64,000 nucleotides of DNA from a virus (IMGVR_UViG_3300016486_001578); one strand, 5' to 3'; positions 6,342 through 64,000 are shown, counted from the stretch's first letter. Translations and numbers: made by a program. Notes: generated from the letters alone by a model not told the origin.

Positions 6342-9300
6342 ATGTGGGCATATAGTAGTGATTATAATAGGTGGGAGAAAAAAACTAATAATTTAAATTT
6401 AGATGAATTTCAATACTTTAAGCAAGAAATGGACTCATTTAGATTTTATTCTAAATGTTTAAGTGGTTCTTCTTATATACCAATTAATGATACTTCGGAT
6501 ATTTATGATATACTTACCGATCAAAAGCCAAAAAATTGGTATATTGGTAATACGTCCTCGCAATATTCTAGTTCTCAGATACCAAATGAGTATGCTGAAA
6601 ATATAATAGGAACATCATCTGAGTATTATAAAAAATACCTACCAGAATATGGATTAACTTTAAAGAATTTATTTACTCCTGAGAGAATAATAAAAGATTC
6701 TATAGATAATTTCATCTATGTTGACTTAGCTACAAATGAACAATTATCTGACTTATATGATGAGGTAATAAATAGAAAAATAGATGGTGTTAGGCTATTT
6801 GAGGGTAGCAGAGTACTTATTAAGAACCAAAAATCAAATGTTGTTATATCTAGTTCGGTTGATCCAGATGATTATTTTATTTCTGAATATACGGAAATAA
6901 ATACAGTTGGAACAAACACCGAATACGAGTACTACAATGAAGATAATGGAATATACATTTACTCTGATAATATATTAGTCAGAGAGAGTGACTTGGATAT
7001 TTATGAAAATTGTGTTAGGTTTAGTGTTTGTGTTAAGATGGGAACTAATAATGCAGGTAAACAATTCCATTTATCTAGATTATTAAATGGTTATTATCCA
7101 AATACATTAGAAAACAATCCTATTTTATTTAAGGAGAAAAAAAATTGGGTAATAAGAAATAAAGTTGATTATAATAATCTATTCGATATAAATTACTATG
7201 GTACACTAAAACACGGAACTCAATCTTATGAGTTGGGTGGTATAACCTACTCAATTCCAGAAAGGACAATTTCAATTGGTGAGTTTGGTGTAATTATAAA
7301 TAACCAATCATCATATTCTAATATTATTAGAAATAAGTATAAGGTTAATCTTAGAAGTATAGGCCAAACAGATGCTTATTATTGGATAGTTGGTGATGAT
7401 GGTACACTACTAAGGGTAAGAAAACATGATTTTAATATAGAAAATATAGAAGTTGATTGTAAGTGTCCTAGAAAAAATGTAACCACAAATTTAAGATCTG
7501 TTTCTTTTTTCAATAATCTAAATGGAGTAGTTGTTGGTGATCTAAATACTATATTAATAACAAATGATGGTGGTATAAAATGGGAAAGGCACTTAATAAG
7601 CGCCTTTGACGCTTTCTATTATAATAAAGTTTATTTTAATGATATTAATAATTTCTATATTGGTGGAAACAATGGCGTTTTTATACATTTTAAAAAAGAT
7701 ATAAATAATTGGACAGCATATAAAAGAAGAATATCTAAATTTATTGATGATGAGGATGAGTTTTTGTTGGTTGATAATATAAATGATATATTAAAAACTG
7801 ATGTTGATACTTGGTCACCCTATTATCAATTTTTTACACAATCTACATCGACTAACAAAGAGTTGTTATTTTTGGTAACTGATAATAATAATATCATTTT
7901 ACATGATATAGATAACTCAATTCCATTTCATACTGATTTTATGTATTTAGAAATGGATGATATAGATTATGGTGATATAAAGACAATCGAAAAAAGGTTT
8001 GGTGAAGATAAATTCTACTTTACTGGTTATGATAAGATCAATGAGGAATCTGGTATATTTTCTTTCCAGTTGTCTAATTTCGATAGTATAGGATTTGGTA
8101 ATTCATTTTCGAATAGGATATACTCGACATTCAGTGCTTATTTTGAGTCCGATAGTTATCCAAATGATATTTTTGATTATAAAGGTGATGAGCTAATTTT
8201 ATCTGGTAATAACTCAATGTTATTATCATCGACCTATAGTGCTACATTTAGCTTTTCTAATATAGATGATGAATTAGAATCTAGGTTAAGGTCAAAATTA
8301 TTATTTTTGGATTATGATGTAGCATCTAAATTAAACTTTTTTACAGATGAAGGAGAATATAGGCTACCAAGTTCTGTTGAATTTGGATTCACACAATCTA
8401 TAAATAATTACTTTGGTTTCGCCCCGATAGTACATCCGAGTGAATCTCCTAGTTTTTTGACACAATCGGAAATAAATTGGTGGGAATATTGGAGAGATTC
8501 TGAATCCACTTTTGAGTATTATTCTTATCCTCAACAAATGACAGATGCTACAAAGGTTTTAATATCTAGTTATTTTTCAACAACAGATTCTGATATTGAT
8601 GAGATGGTAATAAATACTATTTCAAAAAATTCATCTGATATATTAAATCTAGCACCGACTATATTGGATGCTGGACATAGTAGATTTAATGGATTACTTT
8701 CCTCCCCTATATCTTCTCCCATAATTGATTATGATATGTATTTATATGATTATTTGATGGTCATAAGAACCAATGCTACGAATAACTTAGTAGCTGAGGT
8801 TGGTGATATGATTAGATTAGAAAGTGATGAAGTTATGGATAACTTTTTAGTAAATAAAAAAATAACATTGGGTGCCAATTCATACATATATCTATTCTCT
8901 GAATTTAGCGATGGAGTAATTAATTCTTTGGTGAATTCTAGTAATATTGTAGTTAAGAATCTTAATAAATTCTCTGATATGATTGAACTAGAATATAGAT
9001 TTAATTTACACCCTATATCAAATGGTTATGATCTATATGTAGATGATCAAGATTTTGTTGAAATATCTGCAAAGTTTAATAATTTAACATCTTATTATAA
9101 CCTAGGAACACAAATATATGGCAACTTAGGAACACAATCAATGGTATATAAAGATAGATTTTTGAAATTCGGATATAAACCAACTTACAATTTATTGGAT
9201 TACCTAGAAGGAATAAATGATAGTTTAATAAATGCTAAATTCTCAAAAAATAAAGAATTTTTATCTATGCCTATTTATAATAATATTCCTGTTGGGTCTA

Positions 9301-51683: not shown

Positions 51684-51693
51684 TGGTTATATA

Positions 51694-59161: not shown

Positions 59162-59611
59162 ATGGAAAAATTACAAATGATAATAATCAGCGCACTTGTT
59201 GTTAGTGCAATAAGTTTTAATGTTTCAATGAGTTGGATCTTTCTTAATTTCAGAGAATGGATATCAAGTAAGAGTAAATTTTTGGAGAAACTGATACATT
59301 GTCCTTGGTGTTTTGCACACTATGTTACTTTTGTGATGTTGTTGGTTATACCAAGTCTTATCATTGATGTAGTTCCTAAACAATCAATTAGTGATATAAT
59401 CTTTCACTTCTCTTTATTAAAAGATATTACGCAAGTTTTTATTAACTTTTTAGTATTATCAATTAATTTCTTATTTACATCATTTTCAATAGTTGGCTTA
59501 ACTGGATTAATCCATTATATTCTTCTTATAGCATATGACCCAGCTAAAAAGGCTGAAAAGTTAAGAGAAATAGAAAAAAGAAAATTATCGAAAAAAGAAG
59601 AAAATAAATAA
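59162..59611 (+). CDS. Membrane protein with CPWC motif (DUF1360-like)
   Basis: Hydrophobic helices, LIHCPWCFAHY. Confidence 0.65.
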   Translation: MEKLQMIIISALVVSAISFNVSMSWIFLNFREWISSKSKFLEKLIHCPWCFAHYVTFVMLLVIPSLIIDVVPKQSISDIIFHFSLLKDITQVFINFLVLSINFLFTSFSIVGLTGLIHYILLIAYDPAKKAEKLREIEKRKLSKKEENK

Positions 59612-59683
59612 TTACCCTTCTTTTTATATATAGTATGGTAGAACTTTTTTTAAATATATATTAAAAAATTAAAAGAATATAAT

Positions 59684-59893
59684 ATGAAACTTAGAAATAA
59701 CGGAATAATAGAAAAAAGAGAATATGTTGGAAAAACATTAGAAAAAGCCAATGAATATGCTGAGGCTGGTGGATTTATTACTAGAATTGTTGAGAAAGAT
59801 GGTAATGCATTTGTTCTAACAATGGATGTTAAAACAAATAGACTCAATTTTAGAATAAAAAACGATAAAGTTATTGATGTATTTGGTGGTTAA
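59684..59893 (+). CDS. Potato-I/I78-like protease inhibitor fold protein
   Basis: YVGKT...LTMDVKTNRLNFRIKNDKVIDVFGG. Confidence 0.6.
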   Translation: MKLRNNGIIEKREYVGKTLEKANEYAEAGGFITRIVEKDGNAFVLTMDVKTNRLNFRIKNDKVIDVFGG

Positions 59894-59919
59894 TAAAAAC
59901 TTCCTTATATTTACATTAC

Positions 59920-60005
59920 AATAGTAGGTAAGTCCTGTTAAAGTGTGGTTGTGAGACATCTACCATAAATATATTTTGAATATATCACTCATAGGATCTA
60001 CTATT
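59920..60005 (+). ncRNA. Candidate structured small RNA
   Basis: AATAGTAGGT/ATCTACTATT, CCTGT/ATAGG and AGTG/CACT nested stems enclosing two hairpins. Confidence 0.4.
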
Positions 60006-60118
60006 TTTAAAATAAATTGAATTAAATTTTGATAATACAAAAACTTATATTACATTTGTAGTATAATAATAACAAAAAAGACAAAAAGAAAGAATTAACT
60101 TTTAATATATAAGAAACA

Positions 60119-60232
60119 ATGAGAGCAATTAACAAACATAAGCATTTTAGTAAGAAGTCATTTTTCTGGTTTAGAAACCAGGGTTCGGCAACAGATGCGT
60201 ATTGCTCTAATTTAAGTAAAACAGGAATGTAA
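60119..60232 (+). CDS. Leader peptide 1 (K/H/F/W-rich), MRAINKHKHFSKKSFFWFRNQGSATDAYCSNLSKTGM
   Basis: 37-aa ORF between promoter motifs and terminator; 11 of codons 6-18 are K/H/F/W. Confidence 0.85.
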   Translation: MRAINKHKHFSKKSFFWFRNQGSATDAYCSNLSKTGM

Positions 60233-60256
60233 ATATTTAAAATAGATATACAAATT

Positions 60257-60294
60257 AAACCCGGACAAATAAAATTGTCCGGGTTTTTTATTTT
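60257..60294 (+). terminator. Attenuator terminator before tRNA array 1
   Basis: AAACCCGGACAA-ATAAAA-TTGTCCGGGTTT plus T-tract. Confidence 0.9.
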
Positions 60295-60299
60295 AACTT

Positions 60300-60372
60300 A
60301 GACCCGTAGCTCAATCGGCAGAGCACCTGACTTTTAATCAGGGGGTAGTGGGATCGTAACCCACCGGGTCTA
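60300..60372 (+). tRNA. tRNA-Lys(TTT)
   Basis: Full cloverleaf; anticodon arm CCTGA-CTTTTAA-TCAGG; T-loop ATCGTAA. Confidence 0.92.
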
Positions 60373-60388
60373 CAAAAAAAAACACAAT

Positions 60389-60507
60389 GGTTGTGTAGCT
60401 CAGTTGGTAAATTGGCTTATCTTTCTTTTTAAAACCCTTTTATCATGAAGAGAGCGGGGGTGTGAAGTACCCTGACATTTGCTCCGGTTCGATTCCGGAC
60501 ATGACCA
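60389..60507 (+). tRNA. Atypical tRNA-Phe(GAA)-like gene with 42-nt insertion in the D-loop
   Basis: Acceptor GGTTGTG/CATGACC, D-stem GCTC/GAGC, anticodon arm GGGGT-GTGAAGT-ACCCT, T-arm TCCGG-TTCGATT-CCGGA. Confidence 0.65.
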
Positions 60508-60518
60508 CAAAAATATAC

Positions 60519-60591
60519 ACGGGCGTAGCTCAGCTGGTAGAGCAGTGGTCTCCAAAACCAAAGGTCGTAGGTTCGATCCCTACCGTTCGTG
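60519..60591 (+). tRNA. tRNA-Trp(CCA)
   Basis: Cloverleaf, loop CTCCAAA. Confidence 0.9.
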
Positions 60592-60601
60592 CAAAATATA
60601 T

Positions 60602-60675
60602 GGTGATTGTAGCTCAATTGGTAGAGCGCTCGATTGTGATTCGAGAGGCAGCGGGATCGTAACCCGTCTTTCACC
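60602..60675 (+). tRNA. tRNA-His(GTG)
   Basis: G-1, C discriminator, loop TTGTGAT; two T-T mismatches in the acceptor stem. Confidence 0.85.
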
Positions 60676-60682
60676 CAAATAT

Positions 60683-60755
60683 GGAACCTTGGCAGATTAG
60701 GTAATTGCGCCGGATTGAAGATCCGGATGACTCGGATCGTTACCGGGAGGTTCCA
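60683..60755 (+). tRNA. tRNA-Phe(GAA)
   Basis: Cloverleaf, CCGGA-TTGAAGA-TCCGG. Confidence 0.9.
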
Positions 60756-60765
60756 CAAAAAAAAT

Positions 60766-60837
60766 ACGTCTGTGGTGTAGTTGGTAACATTTTAGTCTCC
60801 AAAACTAAAGTCTTCGGTTCGAGCCCGAACAGGCGTG
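60766..60837 (+). tRNA. tRNA-Trp(CCA)
   Basis: Cloverleaf, TTAGT-CTCCAAA-ACTAA. Confidence 0.9.
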
Positions 60838-60859
60838 CTATTTAATAATAATAAAAAAT

Positions 60860-60905
60860 ACGTGAGTGAGCGTAGGTTAAGTCGGCAGGATTCCAACCCC
60901 TCGCC
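60860..60905 (+). pseudogene. Possible 5' fragment of a tRNA (Trp-like, loop TTCCAAC)
   Basis: Starts ACGTG like the neighbouring Trp tRNAs; no T-arm or 3' acceptor strand. Confidence 0.3.
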
Positions 60906-60910
60906 GTTAG

Positions 60911-61108
60911 AGTTTTGAAAATAATAAACACTCTATTGATACCAAAAATAAAATGAGCGAAAAGGCCAAATTAAGAATTGGTGAAAAAAATTCATCATTT
61001 GGAACTTGTTGGATAACTAAAAATGGTGTTAATAAGAAAATAAAAAAAGAATTAATTCAAACATACAAAAAGGATGGTTGGATAAAAGGTAGAATAATAA
61101 ATAAATAA
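60911..61108 (+). pseudogene. Remnant of a Seg-like homing endonuclease (NUMOD3 plus C-terminal DNA-binding part)
   Basis: KHSIDTKNKMSEK...GEKNSSFGTCWIT...GWIKGR*; no catalytic N-terminus. Confidence 0.7.
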
Positions 61109-61114
61109 ATAATT

Positions 61115-61188
61115 GCGCTTGTAACTCAGTTGGTAGAGTACCTGGCTTTTAACCAGGGAGTCGTCGGGTTCGAGTCCCACCGGGCGCA
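61115..61188 (+). tRNA. tRNA-Lys(TTT)
   Basis: Cloverleaf CCTGG-CTTTTAA-CCAGG; one bulged C in the T-stem. Confidence 0.88.
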
Positions 61189-61261
61189 CAAAAATTATGT
61201 GTTTGAACTTACAGTTTGAGATTTACACAGTACCTAAAATCTAAGTAAACTGGAGAAATAT

Positions 61262-61340
61262 ACGGGTATCGTCTAAGCAAAGACACTTCGTACAAGCGAA
61301 GAAATAGGATGCATTTTAGGTTCAAGTCCCCTCGCCCGTG
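61262..61340 (+). other. Degenerate tRNA-like element
   Basis: ACGGGT/GCCCGT ends, GTCT/AGAC stem, CTTCG/CGAAG stem with 6-nt loop, GGTTCAAGTCC. Confidence 0.4.
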
Positions 61341-61373
61341 CTAAAAACAAAATTAACTTTTAATATATAGTAT

Positions 61374-61628
61374 ATGAAACATTTAGAAAAATTTAAAATG
61401 ATAAAGGAAAGTAAGCTATCGGTGTATAAAGATGTTTGGGCTATTATAAAATATGATGATTTTGAAATACATGAAGTATATCTTAAAAAAGAAGAAGCAG
61501 AACTCGATTGTATAAAAAAGAATGAAGAACTAGAAAAACTTAGTCATATTAAACATAGATATGAAGTTAAGTCATTAGATGATGCAATAGATATCATAAA
61601 AGATAGTGTCAGGGGTGATGTTTATTAA
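61374..61628 (+). CDS. Small protein, MKHLEKF...ES N-terminal motif
   Basis: ORF after late motif. Confidence 0.7.
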   Translation: MKHLEKFKMIKESKLSVYKDVWAIIKYDDFEIHEVYLKKEEAELDCIKKNEELEKLSHIKHRYEVKSLDDAIDIIKDSVRGDVY

Positions 61629-61641
61629 AAAATAAAATTAT

Positions 61642-61836
61642 ATGAAACATATAGAAAAATTTAATGAGAATTCCTCTATGAAAACTGAGGAAGAAATAAG
61701 AGAAGAAATAGCCAATTCTATTGGATATGACCTTAAATATTGGTTGGAAAATTGCACAGCACTTGGTAGAGACGCCTATGGCGCATATATCGATAAGGCA
61801 ATTAAATCTATTCAGAATAAAATAATAAAAGGATAA
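61642..61836 (+). CDS. Small protein, MKHIEKFNEN N-terminal motif
   Basis: ORF. Confidence 0.65.
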   Translation: MKHIEKFNENSSMKTEEEIREEIANSIGYDLKYWLENCTALGRDAYGAYIDKAIKSIQNKIIKG

Positions 61837-61839
61837 AAT

Positions 61840-62151
61840 TTGAAACATCTAAAACCATTCAATGAATCAAAATATAATGATATCGTAGATGATATTTTTT
61901 AGAATTAAAAGACTCTGGTTTTGAAATATGGCACTTAGATGATAAGCATGGACATGAAGTAGTAATAAGAAGAAATTAAAATTATATCTAGTGATGGTGA
62001 AGTGATGATTGATTTGTTTGATTATTTAAGAAACAAAGATTTTGAAAAAATAAAAGTTCTTACTACTACACACCTACATACAAAGAAAGAAGGAAAAAGA
62101 GGAATTATTGATTTGGAAAATTTAAAATATGTAATTATTCAATTTAAATAG
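61840..62151 (+). pseudogene. Small protein (MKHLKPFNES, TTG start) with two apparent frameshifts
   Basis: Continuous protein-like reading is restored by shifts near 61897 and 61968. Confidence 0.5.
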
Positions 62152-62223
62152 AAAAAAATTAGGAAATAACAAAAACAAGTATTACATTTATAATATATAT
62201 AGTAACAATAAGAAAATAAAACA

Positions 62224-62301
62224 ATGAATAACATAAACAACATATCGAATAGTTCTAGTCGTAGTTCGCTAAAAATTAGTGAGGGTTGTTCGTATTTGTA
62301 A
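62224..62301 (+). CDS. Leader peptide 2 (Ser/Arg), MNNINNISNSSSRSSLKISEGCSYL
   Basis: 25-aa ORF; control stretch TCG AAT AGT TCT AGT CGT AGT TCG. Confidence 0.85.
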   Translation: MNNINNISNSSSRSSLKISEGCSYL

Positions 62302-62325
62302 TATTCGTATAAAAAAGATATTTAT

Positions 62326-62357
62326 AAAGACCCTCTAATTTATTAGAGGGTTTTTTT
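62326..62357 (+). terminator. Attenuator terminator before tRNA array 2
   Basis: AAAGACCCTCTAA-TTTA-TTAGAGGGTTTTTTT. Confidence 0.9.
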
Positions 62358-62365
62358 GTTTTTAT

Positions 62366-62442
62366 GCCTTAGTATCAGCACCGAATACGAATCGGTAGTC
62401 TTGTAATGGATGAAAATGTGGGTTCGACTCCTACCTAAGGTT
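62366..62442 (+). tRNA. D-armless tRNA-Arg(ACG)-like RNA
   Basis: Acceptor GCCTTAG/CTAAGGT, 7-nt linker in place of the D-arm, ACCGA-ATACGAA-TCGGT, 21-nt variable region, T-arm GTGGG-TTCGACT-CCTAC. Confidence 0.65.
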
Positions 62443-62449
62443 CAAGTTA

Positions 62450-62641
62450 GTTAAACGTAAGGATAACTCTAAAATATGTAACGATTGTAGGTCGATTAAT
62501 AATAGGAAAGTTAAAAGACCATCATATGAAGAATTAAAAGAAGAAATTAAAATATCAAATTATACAAAGATGGGTAAAAAATATGGAGTTAGTGATGTCT
62601 CTATAAAAAAATGGATTAAAAATTATGAAAAAATGAAATAA
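62450..62641 (+). pseudogene. Remnant of an HNH-type homing endonuclease C-terminus (CxxC plus HTH)
   Basis: CNDC...RKVKRPSYEEL...GKKYGVSDVSIKKW; no start codon. Confidence 0.6.
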
Positions 62642-62660
62642 AATTAGTCACAAAAAAATT

Positions 62661-62748
62661 GGAAATGAAAGCAGTGCCATGGAGGTGCGACTAGTCTTGA
62701 AAACTAGGTCTCGTTAAATCGGGTGGGGGTCGGTTCCTCTCATTTCCG
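62661..62748 (+). tRNA. tRNA-Ser(TGA), 8/4 type
   Basis: GGAAATGA/TCATTTCC, CTAGT-CTTGAAA-ACTAG, long variable arm. Confidence 0.8.
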
Positions 62749-62759
62749 CAAATAAATAA

Positions 62760-62843
62760 GGAAGAGTAATTAAACAGGTGTTTGACCTCGTTTTGAAAAC
62801 GAGTGGTACTTTACGGTATGGGGATCGGGACCTCACTCTTCCG
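62760..62843 (+). tRNA. tRNA-Ser(TGA), 8/4-compatible
   Basis: GGAAGAGT/ACTCTTCC, D-arm TTAAAC-AGGT-GTTTGA, CTCGT-TTTGAAA-ACGAG. Confidence 0.82.
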
Positions 62844-62848
62844 CACAT

Positions 62849-62932
62849 AGAGAGTAATCTAGTCTGGTGACTAGGGCCGCCTGCTAAGCGTGTCGCACCT
62901 TCGGGTGTGGGGTTCAATTCCTCTACTCTCTG
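62849..62932 (+). tRNA. tRNA-Ser(GCT), 8/4 type
   Basis: AGAGAGTA/TACTCTCT, D-arm CTAGTC-TGGT-GACTAG, loop CTGCTAA, TTCG-capped variable arm. Confidence 0.82.
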
Positions 62933-62936
62933 CTAT

Positions 62937-63027
62937 GGAAGTTATGGTGTATTAGGTAATACTTCTTGTTTGGAAAACAAGAACCCGTGTAATGGCGGGC
63001 CCGTTTCGACTACGGTGACTTCCTCCA
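62937..63027 (+). tRNA. tRNA-Ser(GGA), 8/4 type, CCA encoded
   Basis: GGAAGTTA/TGACTTCC, T-stem CCGT/ACGG, CTTGT-TTGGAAA-ACAAG. Confidence 0.82.
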
Positions 63028-63109
63028 AATTAGAGGCTCATGAGGGCTTGTTTTCATTTCTATTTATGGGACAATATCAGATATAAAAAGAAAAAGAAAA
63101 TAAATACAT

Positions 63110-63199
63110 AGAAGTGTACTCAAATTGGTAAAGAGGGCAGTTTGCTAAACTGTTAGGCCGGTTAATAACTGGTGCGGGGTTCGAACCCCTCCATTTCTG
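63110..63199 (+). tRNA. tRNA-Ser(GCT), canonical type
   Basis: AGAAGTG/CATTTCT, GCAGT-TTGCTAA-ACTGT, long variable arm. Confidence 0.88.
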
Positions 63200-63234
63200 C
63201 TTATTTTTAAATATTTTTCCTTATCTTTAATGAT

Positions 63235-63462
63235 ATGAAGAGAGTTAAATGTATAAAGAACTTTTATAAAAGTACTTACGGAGATAAAATATTATTTGAA
63301 GATGGTAAAGAATATTACCAATTAACTGATTTTGTATCAGATGGATTAAAGTTTGTTTGTATAAAATCACCTCATATGTTGGGTAAGGGCATTGTTGAAT
63401 TTGCTTTGGTTGAAAAAACTGATACATATTTATTATTTAAAGATTACTTTGTAAGTATCTAA
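63235..63462 (+). CDS. Hypothetical protein
   Basis: 75-aa ORF. Confidence 0.6.
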   Translation: MKRVKCIKNFYKSTYGDKILFEDGKEYYQLTDFVSDGLKFVCIKSPHMLGKGIVEFALVEKTDTYLLFKDYFVSI

Positions 63463-63848
63463 TTAAGTGACTCATATATTATACTATCATCATAATCAAC
63501 AGAATAATCATCGAACCAAGATACATATTCACTTAGTGTTCCTTTTGAAAATTCAAGAATTTCACCATTTAATGTTACCCAATGATGTGTGAATTCCTTA
63601 CCATCATATTCTTCATCTTTACCACAATTTTGTTCAATTCTTATATTTCCGAATTGTTTTTTAATACCCTTTATTCCCAATCTCATAATAGATGATACTA
63701 TTGATTGACAATCACCAATTTCTTGGTTATCTATTAATCTATCCCAACCACAATCAGCATCATTCATAAGATGAATTTTTATTTCATTTATTATGAATTT
63801 TTTGTAAATATCATCACCATGATTCTCAAATAATTTAATATATTTCAT
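63459..63848 (-). CDS. Hypothetical protein, MKYIKLFEN motif; possible Cys-His (transglutaminase-like) fold
   Basis: GDCQ...HHWV...ILEF pattern. Confidence 0.6.
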   Translation of the reverse strand: MKYIKLFENHGDDIYKKFIINEIKIHLMNDADCGWDRLIDNQEIGDCQSIVSSIMRLGIKGIKKQFGNIRIEQNCGKDEEYDGKEFTHHWVTLNGEILEFSKGTLSEYVSWFDDYSVDYDDSIIYESLN

Positions 63849-63851
63849 TTC

Positions 63852-64000
63852 TTAATACATTTCATTTGCTGATATAGTGCTTATAAAATCACTTATTTGT
63901 TCGGGTTGAAAGCCGTAATCACTTGGTCCTAATTCAGAGCCAAATCCAATATTCATCATATCATAAAAACTATCATATCCCCAGGCCGGGTAATTTAAAT
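63852..64000 (-). CDS. 3' end of a gene running in from the right edge
   Basis: Open frame ...YPAWGYDSFYDMMNIGFGSELG...NEMY*. Confidence 0.6.
   Translation of the reverse strand, partial: LNYPAWGYDSFYDMMNIGFGSELGPSDYGFQPEQISDFISTISANEMY

Follow-up and report, generated by a model that had tools for sequence, protein, structure and literature searches.

Organization of the Two tRNA Cassettes

The DNA analysed here, 64,000 nucleotides (nt) of the virus IMGVR_UViG_3300016486_001578 and referred to as a whole as the window, belongs to a giant Bacteroidota phage. Within the window, tRNA genes are confined to the 3' end and are split into two arrays. Each array is part of a cassette built to a common plan, in which a promoter-like motif, AAACAATG and a short open reading frame (ORF) are followed by a strong hairpin and its T-tract and, after a gap of 5-13 nt, by the tRNA genes. 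The short ORFs, termed leaders 1 and 2, each end 24 nt ahead of the terminator stem. The principal elements of the two cassettes are as follows, the terminator hairpin being formed by regions 3 and 4 (3:4) of each leader transcript.

60028..60058, + strand: promoter 1, TTTG, a 19-nt spacer and TAnnTTTG, a pattern match to the Bacteroidetes sigma-A type (-33/-7)
60101..60111, + strand: TTTAATATATA upstream motif, 8 nt before the leader 1 start codon, recurring before the leaders of relatives and before other window genes
60119..60232, + strand: leader ORF 1, 37 codons, from an ORF scan; kept as an ORF in the genomes LR756502.1 and LR745206.1 and in 20 IMG/VR loci
60134-60172, + strand: control run of leader 1, codons 6-18, 11 of the 13 coding for Lys, His, Phe or Trp
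60257..60294, + strand: predicted intrinsic terminator 1 (3:4), a 12-pair stem (60257-60286, -18.3 kcal/mol) plus T-tract
60300..61189, + strand: tRNA array 1, from ARAGORN/Rfam calls
62183..62190, + strand: promoter 2, -7 element TACATTTA, with one mismatch to TAnnTTTG
62224..62301, + strand: leader ORF 2, 25 codons, with homologous leaders in the contigs L001, L002, L012 and L035
62245-62268, + strand: control run of leader 2, eight codons, six of them Ser (TCG, AGT, TCT) and one the Arg codon CGT
62326..62365, + strand: predicted intrinsic terminator 2 (3:4), a 13-pair stem (62326-62355, -15.3 kcal/mol) plus T-tract
62366..62442, + strand: Arg(ACG)-like RNA, an aberrant tRNA (Rfam 24.4 bits, under the cut-off of 29)
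62661..63200, + strand: five Ser tRNAs of array 2

The individual genes of the arrays are these.

60300-60373, + strand: Lys(UUU)
60389-60508, + strand: tRNA with an insertion (Rfam 37 bits)
60519-60592, + strand: Trp(CCA)
60603-60676, + strand: His(GUG)
60683-60756, + strand: Phe(GAA)
60766-60838, + strand: Trp(CCA), second copy
60953-61108, + strand: inserted ORF, 51 codons
61115-61189, + strand: Lys(UUU), second copy
61262..61341, + strand: degenerate tRNA-like element, last in array 1, called by ARAGORN at the relaxed threshold only
62661-62749, + strand: Ser(UGA)
62760-62844, + strand: Ser(UGA), second copy
62848-62933, + strand: Ser(GCU)
62937-63027, + strand: Ser(GGA)
63110-63200, + strand: Ser(GCU), second copy

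Two of the Ser tRNAs are called by ARAGORN with default settings and two at a relaxed threshold, and the fifth is identified by the Rfam tRNA-Sec model together with inspection of the anticodon loop by eye. Several tRNA elements of the window have aberrant forms. The gene at 60389-60508 has in the ARAGORN model an intron of 26 nt as well as a long extra arm, its anticodon assignment being ambiguous between Phe and His, and the position of the Arg(ACG)-like RNA is taken in relatives by intact Arg(ACG) tRNAs. Both arrays also contain short inserted ORFs (60953-61108 and 62450-62641), which by eye look like the C-terminal portions of longer Cys/His-rich ORFs lying between tRNAs in relatives (e.g. 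L012 6625-7251) and may be remnants of homing endonucleases; of eight small ORFs in and near the arrays, none has a match in Pfam.

The original prediction, made from the sequence of the window, held that this layout occurs twice, and both cassettes are present at these coordinates with the same order of elements. It described leader 2 correctly as Ser-rich with one CGT, ahead of five Ser tRNAs and an Arg(ACG)-like RNA. Its statement that only Lys, His, Phe and Trp tRNAs lie behind leader 1 stands, whereas its count of a single degenerate element has to be amended, as the element at 61262-61341 is also present.

Leader Codons Match the tRNA Cargo

The codons of both leaders stand out from those of a comparison set made up of 396 ORFs, called mechanically across the window with lengths of 15-60 codons. 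Leader 1 has 11 of 13 consecutive codons decoded by its own tRNA cargo compared with eight in the runner-up ORF, and leader 2 has seven of nine compared with five. In total, leader 2 contains nine Ser/Arg codons of the types TCG, TCT, AGT and CGT, all of which are decodable by the cargo.

Three genomes of uncultured phages, 634, 642 and 735 kb long, match the window region; the paper describing genomes of these sizes (PMC7162821) assigns them to the Mahaphage clade with predicted Bacteroidetes hosts. In LR756502.1 and LR745206.1 (634-642 kb) both leaders have homologues that precede the same sets of tRNAs. These two genomes contain seven cassettes each, of the types Lys/His/Phe/Trp, Ser/Arg, Glu/Tyr, Ile/Gly/Ala, Asn/Leu/Val/Thr/Ile, Pro/Asp and Gln, which together cover 19 amino acids. 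When each leader is scored by the fraction of its codons decodable by each array with wobble rules applied, the true pairing of leaders with cargo is the single best of the 5040 permutations in LR756502.1 and LR745206.1 alike. The choice of Arg codons follows the same pattern: the three Ser/Arg leaders have six between them, every one of the CGN class that the cargo Arg(ACG) or Arg(UCG) decodes. Across long ORFs from the window and from the loci of two relatives, CGN has a share of only 7% among Arg codons. A near-identical leader on contig L008 has its Arg written as the rare codon CGC. A pattern scan of IMG/VR yields 20 further true homologues of leader 1, every one of them ahead of Lys/His/Phe/Trp tRNAs (20/20). 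On contig L050 the Ser/Arg tRNAs come after the Lys/His/Phe/Trp tRNAs and have no leader of their own.

A similar arrangement is found in Cellulophaga phage phi4:1, a cultured phage of a Bacteroidota host, which has three cassettes, each with a short ORF, a terminator and tRNAs. Their cargoes are:

Pro/Glu/Gln/His/Leu/Arg
Ala/Lys/Ile/Gly/Met/Asp/Thr/Val/Arg
Tyr/Ser/Asn/Trp/Phe plus a Cys-like tRNA

The phi4:1 leaders match their own cargo with scores of 0.42-0.54 compared with at most 0.29 for the cargo of the other groups. Since phi4:1 is a separate lineage in which the amino acids are grouped differently, leader content follows the cargo rather than shared ancestry. The correlation between leader codons and anticodon content, proposed originally as a check in related phages, is thus present across homologous and non-homologous cassettes.

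Leaders of different classes (window 60119 and 62224; L001-L005) share an N terminus composed of Met, Lys/Arg/Thr/Asn, Thr/Asn, Ile/Leu and Asn, which suggests that the cassettes are paralogues with control codons rewritten for each cargo. The grouping of tRNAs also varies between genomes. On L009 (4590-5320) Gln, Pro and Asp tRNAs are interleaved after one Pro/Gln/Asp leader; in LR745206.1 (L004 34203-35630) the Gln tRNAs are set apart in their own array behind a Gln-rich leader, and the Pro/Asp leader retains Gln codons. In LR756502.1 a gene lies between the Lys/His/Phe/Trp and Ser/Arg arrays (L001 5385-6105) that resembles, on inspection by eye, a class I tRNA synthetase (HIGN-type and KMSKS-like motifs), possibly for Trp, and small ORFs of unknown function occupy the equivalent place in the window. 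The Lys/His/Phe/Trp array of another huge phage (L056, an IMG/VR contig of 507910 bases) includes an ARAGORN tRNA at 8669-8740 with the anticodon UUA, which would read the stop codon TAA. A lone tRNA-Met(CAU) without its own leader or terminator lies just upstream of the Glu/Tyr cassette on L005 (16871-16943) and L003 (2338-2410); the L005 copy directly follows TTTAATATATA and has the 5' end CGCGGGG. If this is an initiator tRNA, it would be the sole tRNA whose supply could not be sensed by stalling during elongation.

Alternative Pairings between Leader and Terminator

Each window leader is predicted to have four regions with the mutually exclusive pairings 1:2, 2:3 and 3:4, region 1 covering the last control codons. 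The elements upstream of the terminators are located as follows.

60164..60183, + strand: predicted hairpin 1:2 of leader 1, 60164-60171 with 60176-60183, -7.3 kcal/mol
60178..60188, + strand: region 2 of leader 1, 5' strand of the predicted antiterminator, with its partner at 60258-60266
62265..62283, + strand: predicted hairpin 1:2 of leader 2, 62265-62272 with 62276-62283, -5.6 kcal/mol
62273..62288, + strand: region 2 of leader 2, core 62281-62287

The 5' strand of hairpin 1:2 contains Phe-Trp-Phe codons in leader 1 and the last Ser control codon in leader 2. The competing 2:3 pairing joins 60178-60185 to 60258-60264 in the 5' arm of terminator 1 (-8.8 kcal/mol) and 62281-62287 to 62329-62335 in the 5' arm of terminator 2 (-11.7 kcal/mol). 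In leader 2 the distance from the end of region 2 to the end of the stop codon is 13 nt.

When the 3' arm of the terminator is left out of the search, the 5' arm finds a partner that, for almost all units, lies past the control codons and towards the 3' end of the leader ORF. Pairing is stronger between cognate than non-cognate leaders and terminators: of the 5040 permutations, 203 are as good in one genome and 13 in the second. In 14 non-redundant Lys/His/Phe/Trp leaders, homologues of leader 1, region 2 is located 4-12 nt past the Trp-Phe codons and co-varies with the terminator arm, examples being the pairs GTTCGG/CCGAAC, ATTCGA/TCGAAT and GAACTTGG/CCAAGTTC. The peptide encoded at region 2 is not conserved, and its amino acids change freely with complementarity to the terminator being kept. 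The MAFFT alignment of these sequences places the terminator arms one column out of register in several rows, and covariation was therefore assessed by comparing cognate with non-cognate duplex energies; not one of 20000 random reassignments does as well as the true one. From the 14 homologues RNAalifold recovers the core of the terminator and a single local hairpin, and nothing more. The TGGTT...AACCA pairing of hairpin 1:2 is kept in most, not all, of the aligned leader 1 homologues.

Promoter Motifs

Most leaders are preceded by the TTTG/TAnnTTTG motif or a near match to it, and many carry TTTAATATATA 8-10 nt ahead of the start codon. The -7 element of promoter 2 is TACATTTG or TATATTTG in homologues. 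The full -33/-7 pattern is not enriched across the window (six matches compared with 3.3 expected), and the assignment of promoters is for this reason based on their position and conservation upstream of leaders. Transcription of the tRNAs from promoters downstream of the terminators had been named as an outcome contrary to attenuation; neither the TTTG/TAnnTTTG motif nor TTTAATATATA occurs between terminator and tRNAs in either window cassette.

The window contains 11 exact copies of TTTAATATATA, at 823, 9785, 14598, 37938(-), 39325(-), 41239, 51688(-), 55220, 59655(-), 60101 and 61359, and 49 copies with one mismatch compared with 32 expected. Those at 51688(-), 55220 and 61359 are directly upstream of ORF starts, and TTTAATATATA may be a phage-specific promoter or start-site element.

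Proposed Mechanism and Alternative Explanations

The arrangement of these elements makes it very probable that both loci are ribosome-mediated (leader-peptide) transcription attenuators controlling tRNA genes, and classical attenuation by ribosome stalling is well supported at the level of sequence. The proposal of leader-peptide attenuation made originally agrees with the match of codons to cargo, the co-varying cognate antiterminator and the lack of promoter-like motifs after the terminators. Transcription would start at the host-type promoter upstream of the leader, and a ribosome would read the short leader, whose central codons are those decoded by the downstream tRNAs. With ample charged tRNA the ribosome would advance, hairpin 1:2 would re-form behind it and 3:4 would form, stopping transcription just before the first tRNA; in leader 2 a ribosome on the stop codon would also cover region 2 at its 3' end. 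Where any of the control codons is decoded slowly, the ribosome would stall on region 1 and region 2 would be available to the terminator's 5' arm; this 2:3 pairing would block the terminator and let RNA polymerase read into the tRNA array. As the products of the array are the tRNAs that read the control codons, each array would be under negative feedback.

Several points weigh against this mechanism. The hairpins 1:2 are weak at -7.3 and -5.6 kcal/mol, and the cognate 2:3 pairing of the window leader 1 (-8.8 kcal/mol) is no better than the non-cognate mean (-9.9 kcal/mol). A distance of over 15 nt separates the first Lys and His codons of leader 1 from region 1 downstream, and a ribosome stalled on these codons may thus fail to open 1:2; the stop codon of leader 1 is 46 nt past region 2, so that a terminating ribosome would leave region 2 unmasked. 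The homologous cassettes of related phages are not independent observations, and we know of no evidence for tight coupling of transcription and translation in Bacteroidota. The ORFs, the codon match, the terminators, the competing pairings with their covariation and the lack of a downstream promoter motif can be read from the sequence itself, whereas translation of the leaders, termination and its regulated read-through, the step from stalling to read-through and the natural trigger are features that we infer.

An inverse logic, in which a closely following ribosome suppresses the terminator such that read-through follows from fast decoding and termination from slow decoding, would amount to positive feedback or to a check that translation still works. 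The fairly constant position of the leader stop codons, 17-33 nt ahead of the terminator stems, is consistent with such a scheme, as is the repression of a terminator close behind a translated gene described in the available text of PMC4824070. The 24-nt gap between stop codon and stem in the window, however, exceeds the ribosome footprint, and neither the co-varying complement to the terminator 5' arm within the leader nor the overlap of control codons with region 1 is explained, making the inverse logic unlikely. It is quite unlikely that the hairpins are constitutive partial terminators or processing or stability elements and that the ORFs sense nothing and only shield the 5' leader, for example from Rho. 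tRNA operons do need shielding from premature termination, and the switching is a prediction from sequence, but elements of this kind give no reason for cargo amino acids to be listed across ten independent cassette types, for the rare CGN codons or for region 2 to track the terminator sequence. The conservation of the ORFs and their common N-terminal motif (Met, Lys/Arg/Thr, Thr, Ile, Asn) would suit functional micro-proteins with an incidental codon match; this is highly improbable given that the conserved peptide is limited to the control run, that the amino acids of the 3' part vary while terminator complementarity persists, and that leader composition follows cargo across classes. Chance co-occurrence of small ORFs and terminators has a negligible probability even in AT-rich phage DNA that is rich in short ORFs (396 in the window) and is rejected as far as sequence statistics allow, as both leaders are unique outliers among these ORFs and the true assignment is the single best of 5040 permutations in two genomes.

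Relationship to Known Systems

The attenuators considered here as leader-peptide switches resemble the multivalent attenuators of enterobacteria, among which the ilvGMEDA leader contains Ile, Leu and Val codons and the thr leader Thr and Ile codons, with trpL, hisL and leuL being further examples. Common to the ilvGMEDA/thr type and the phage cassettes are a leader rich in control codons, the 1:2, 2:3 and 3:4 alternatives (as predicted for the phage leaders), a terminator directly before the genes and the sensing of several amino acids by one leader. The phage cassettes differ in regulating tRNAs rather than enzymes, with products that would themselves relieve the stall, in listing two to seven biosynthetically unrelated amino acids identical to the cargo, and in occurring in phage genomes as several paralogous cassettes per genome. 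The pheST attenuator of Escherichia coli, where the pheM leader peptide senses charged tRNA, similarly controls a component of the decoding apparatus and not a biosynthetic pathway; there the controlled product is a synthetase protein, a single amino acid is sensed and the gene belongs to the host. T-box riboswitches share the sensing of tRNA charging and the choice between antiterminator and terminator, but bind uncharged tRNA directly with no need for translation, whereas the phage sensor is an ORF with many codons. A cmscan search of 59500-64000 at E values up to 1 gives no T-box match and none to curated Rfam leader families such as those for His, Trp, Thr, Leu and Phe; its only hits are of tRNA type or weak and due to chance.

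A literature search found no publication on leader-peptide control of tRNA genes or of phage tRNA arrays, and neither "leader" nor "attenuat" occurs in the text of PMC7162821. The available text of an eLife 2023 paper (PMC10264068) proposes that phage tRNA sets replace host tRNAs cut by defence nucleases. The arrays described here resemble those sets, as far as that text describes them, in being able to make up for the loss of host tRNAs, including tRNA-Lys, and differ in that each array has its own codon-matched switch.

Implications for Phage tRNA Supply

The natural trigger of the cassettes could be heavy phage translation, loss of host tRNAs to defence nucleases, or starvation, and a role in counter-defence is conceivable. 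Because the cassettes cover almost all amino acids (19 in the relatives), a response aimed specifically at tRNA-Lys nucleases such as PrrC or PARIS is no more likely than a general, demand-controlled supply of tRNA. Tentatively, and with considerable doubt, large phages might run their whole tRNA supply as closed-loop, codon-specific homeostats, with host tRNA loss through anticodon nucleases, shut-off or starvation being sensed and compensated block by block as an inducible counter-defence.

The leaders offer a read-out, from sequence only, of which tRNAs form one regulatory unit, and the cassettes could serve synthetic biology as compact modular sensors of decoding speed at chosen codons. 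The design is also present in a cultured phage, phi4:1. Control of tRNA genes is known mainly from their promoters, through growth rate and the stringent response, and translation-coupled, codon-specific feedback on tRNA genes would, if true, be a new regulatory logic. For the long-standing question of why phages carry tRNAs, it would point to on-demand supply as opposed to constant supplementation.

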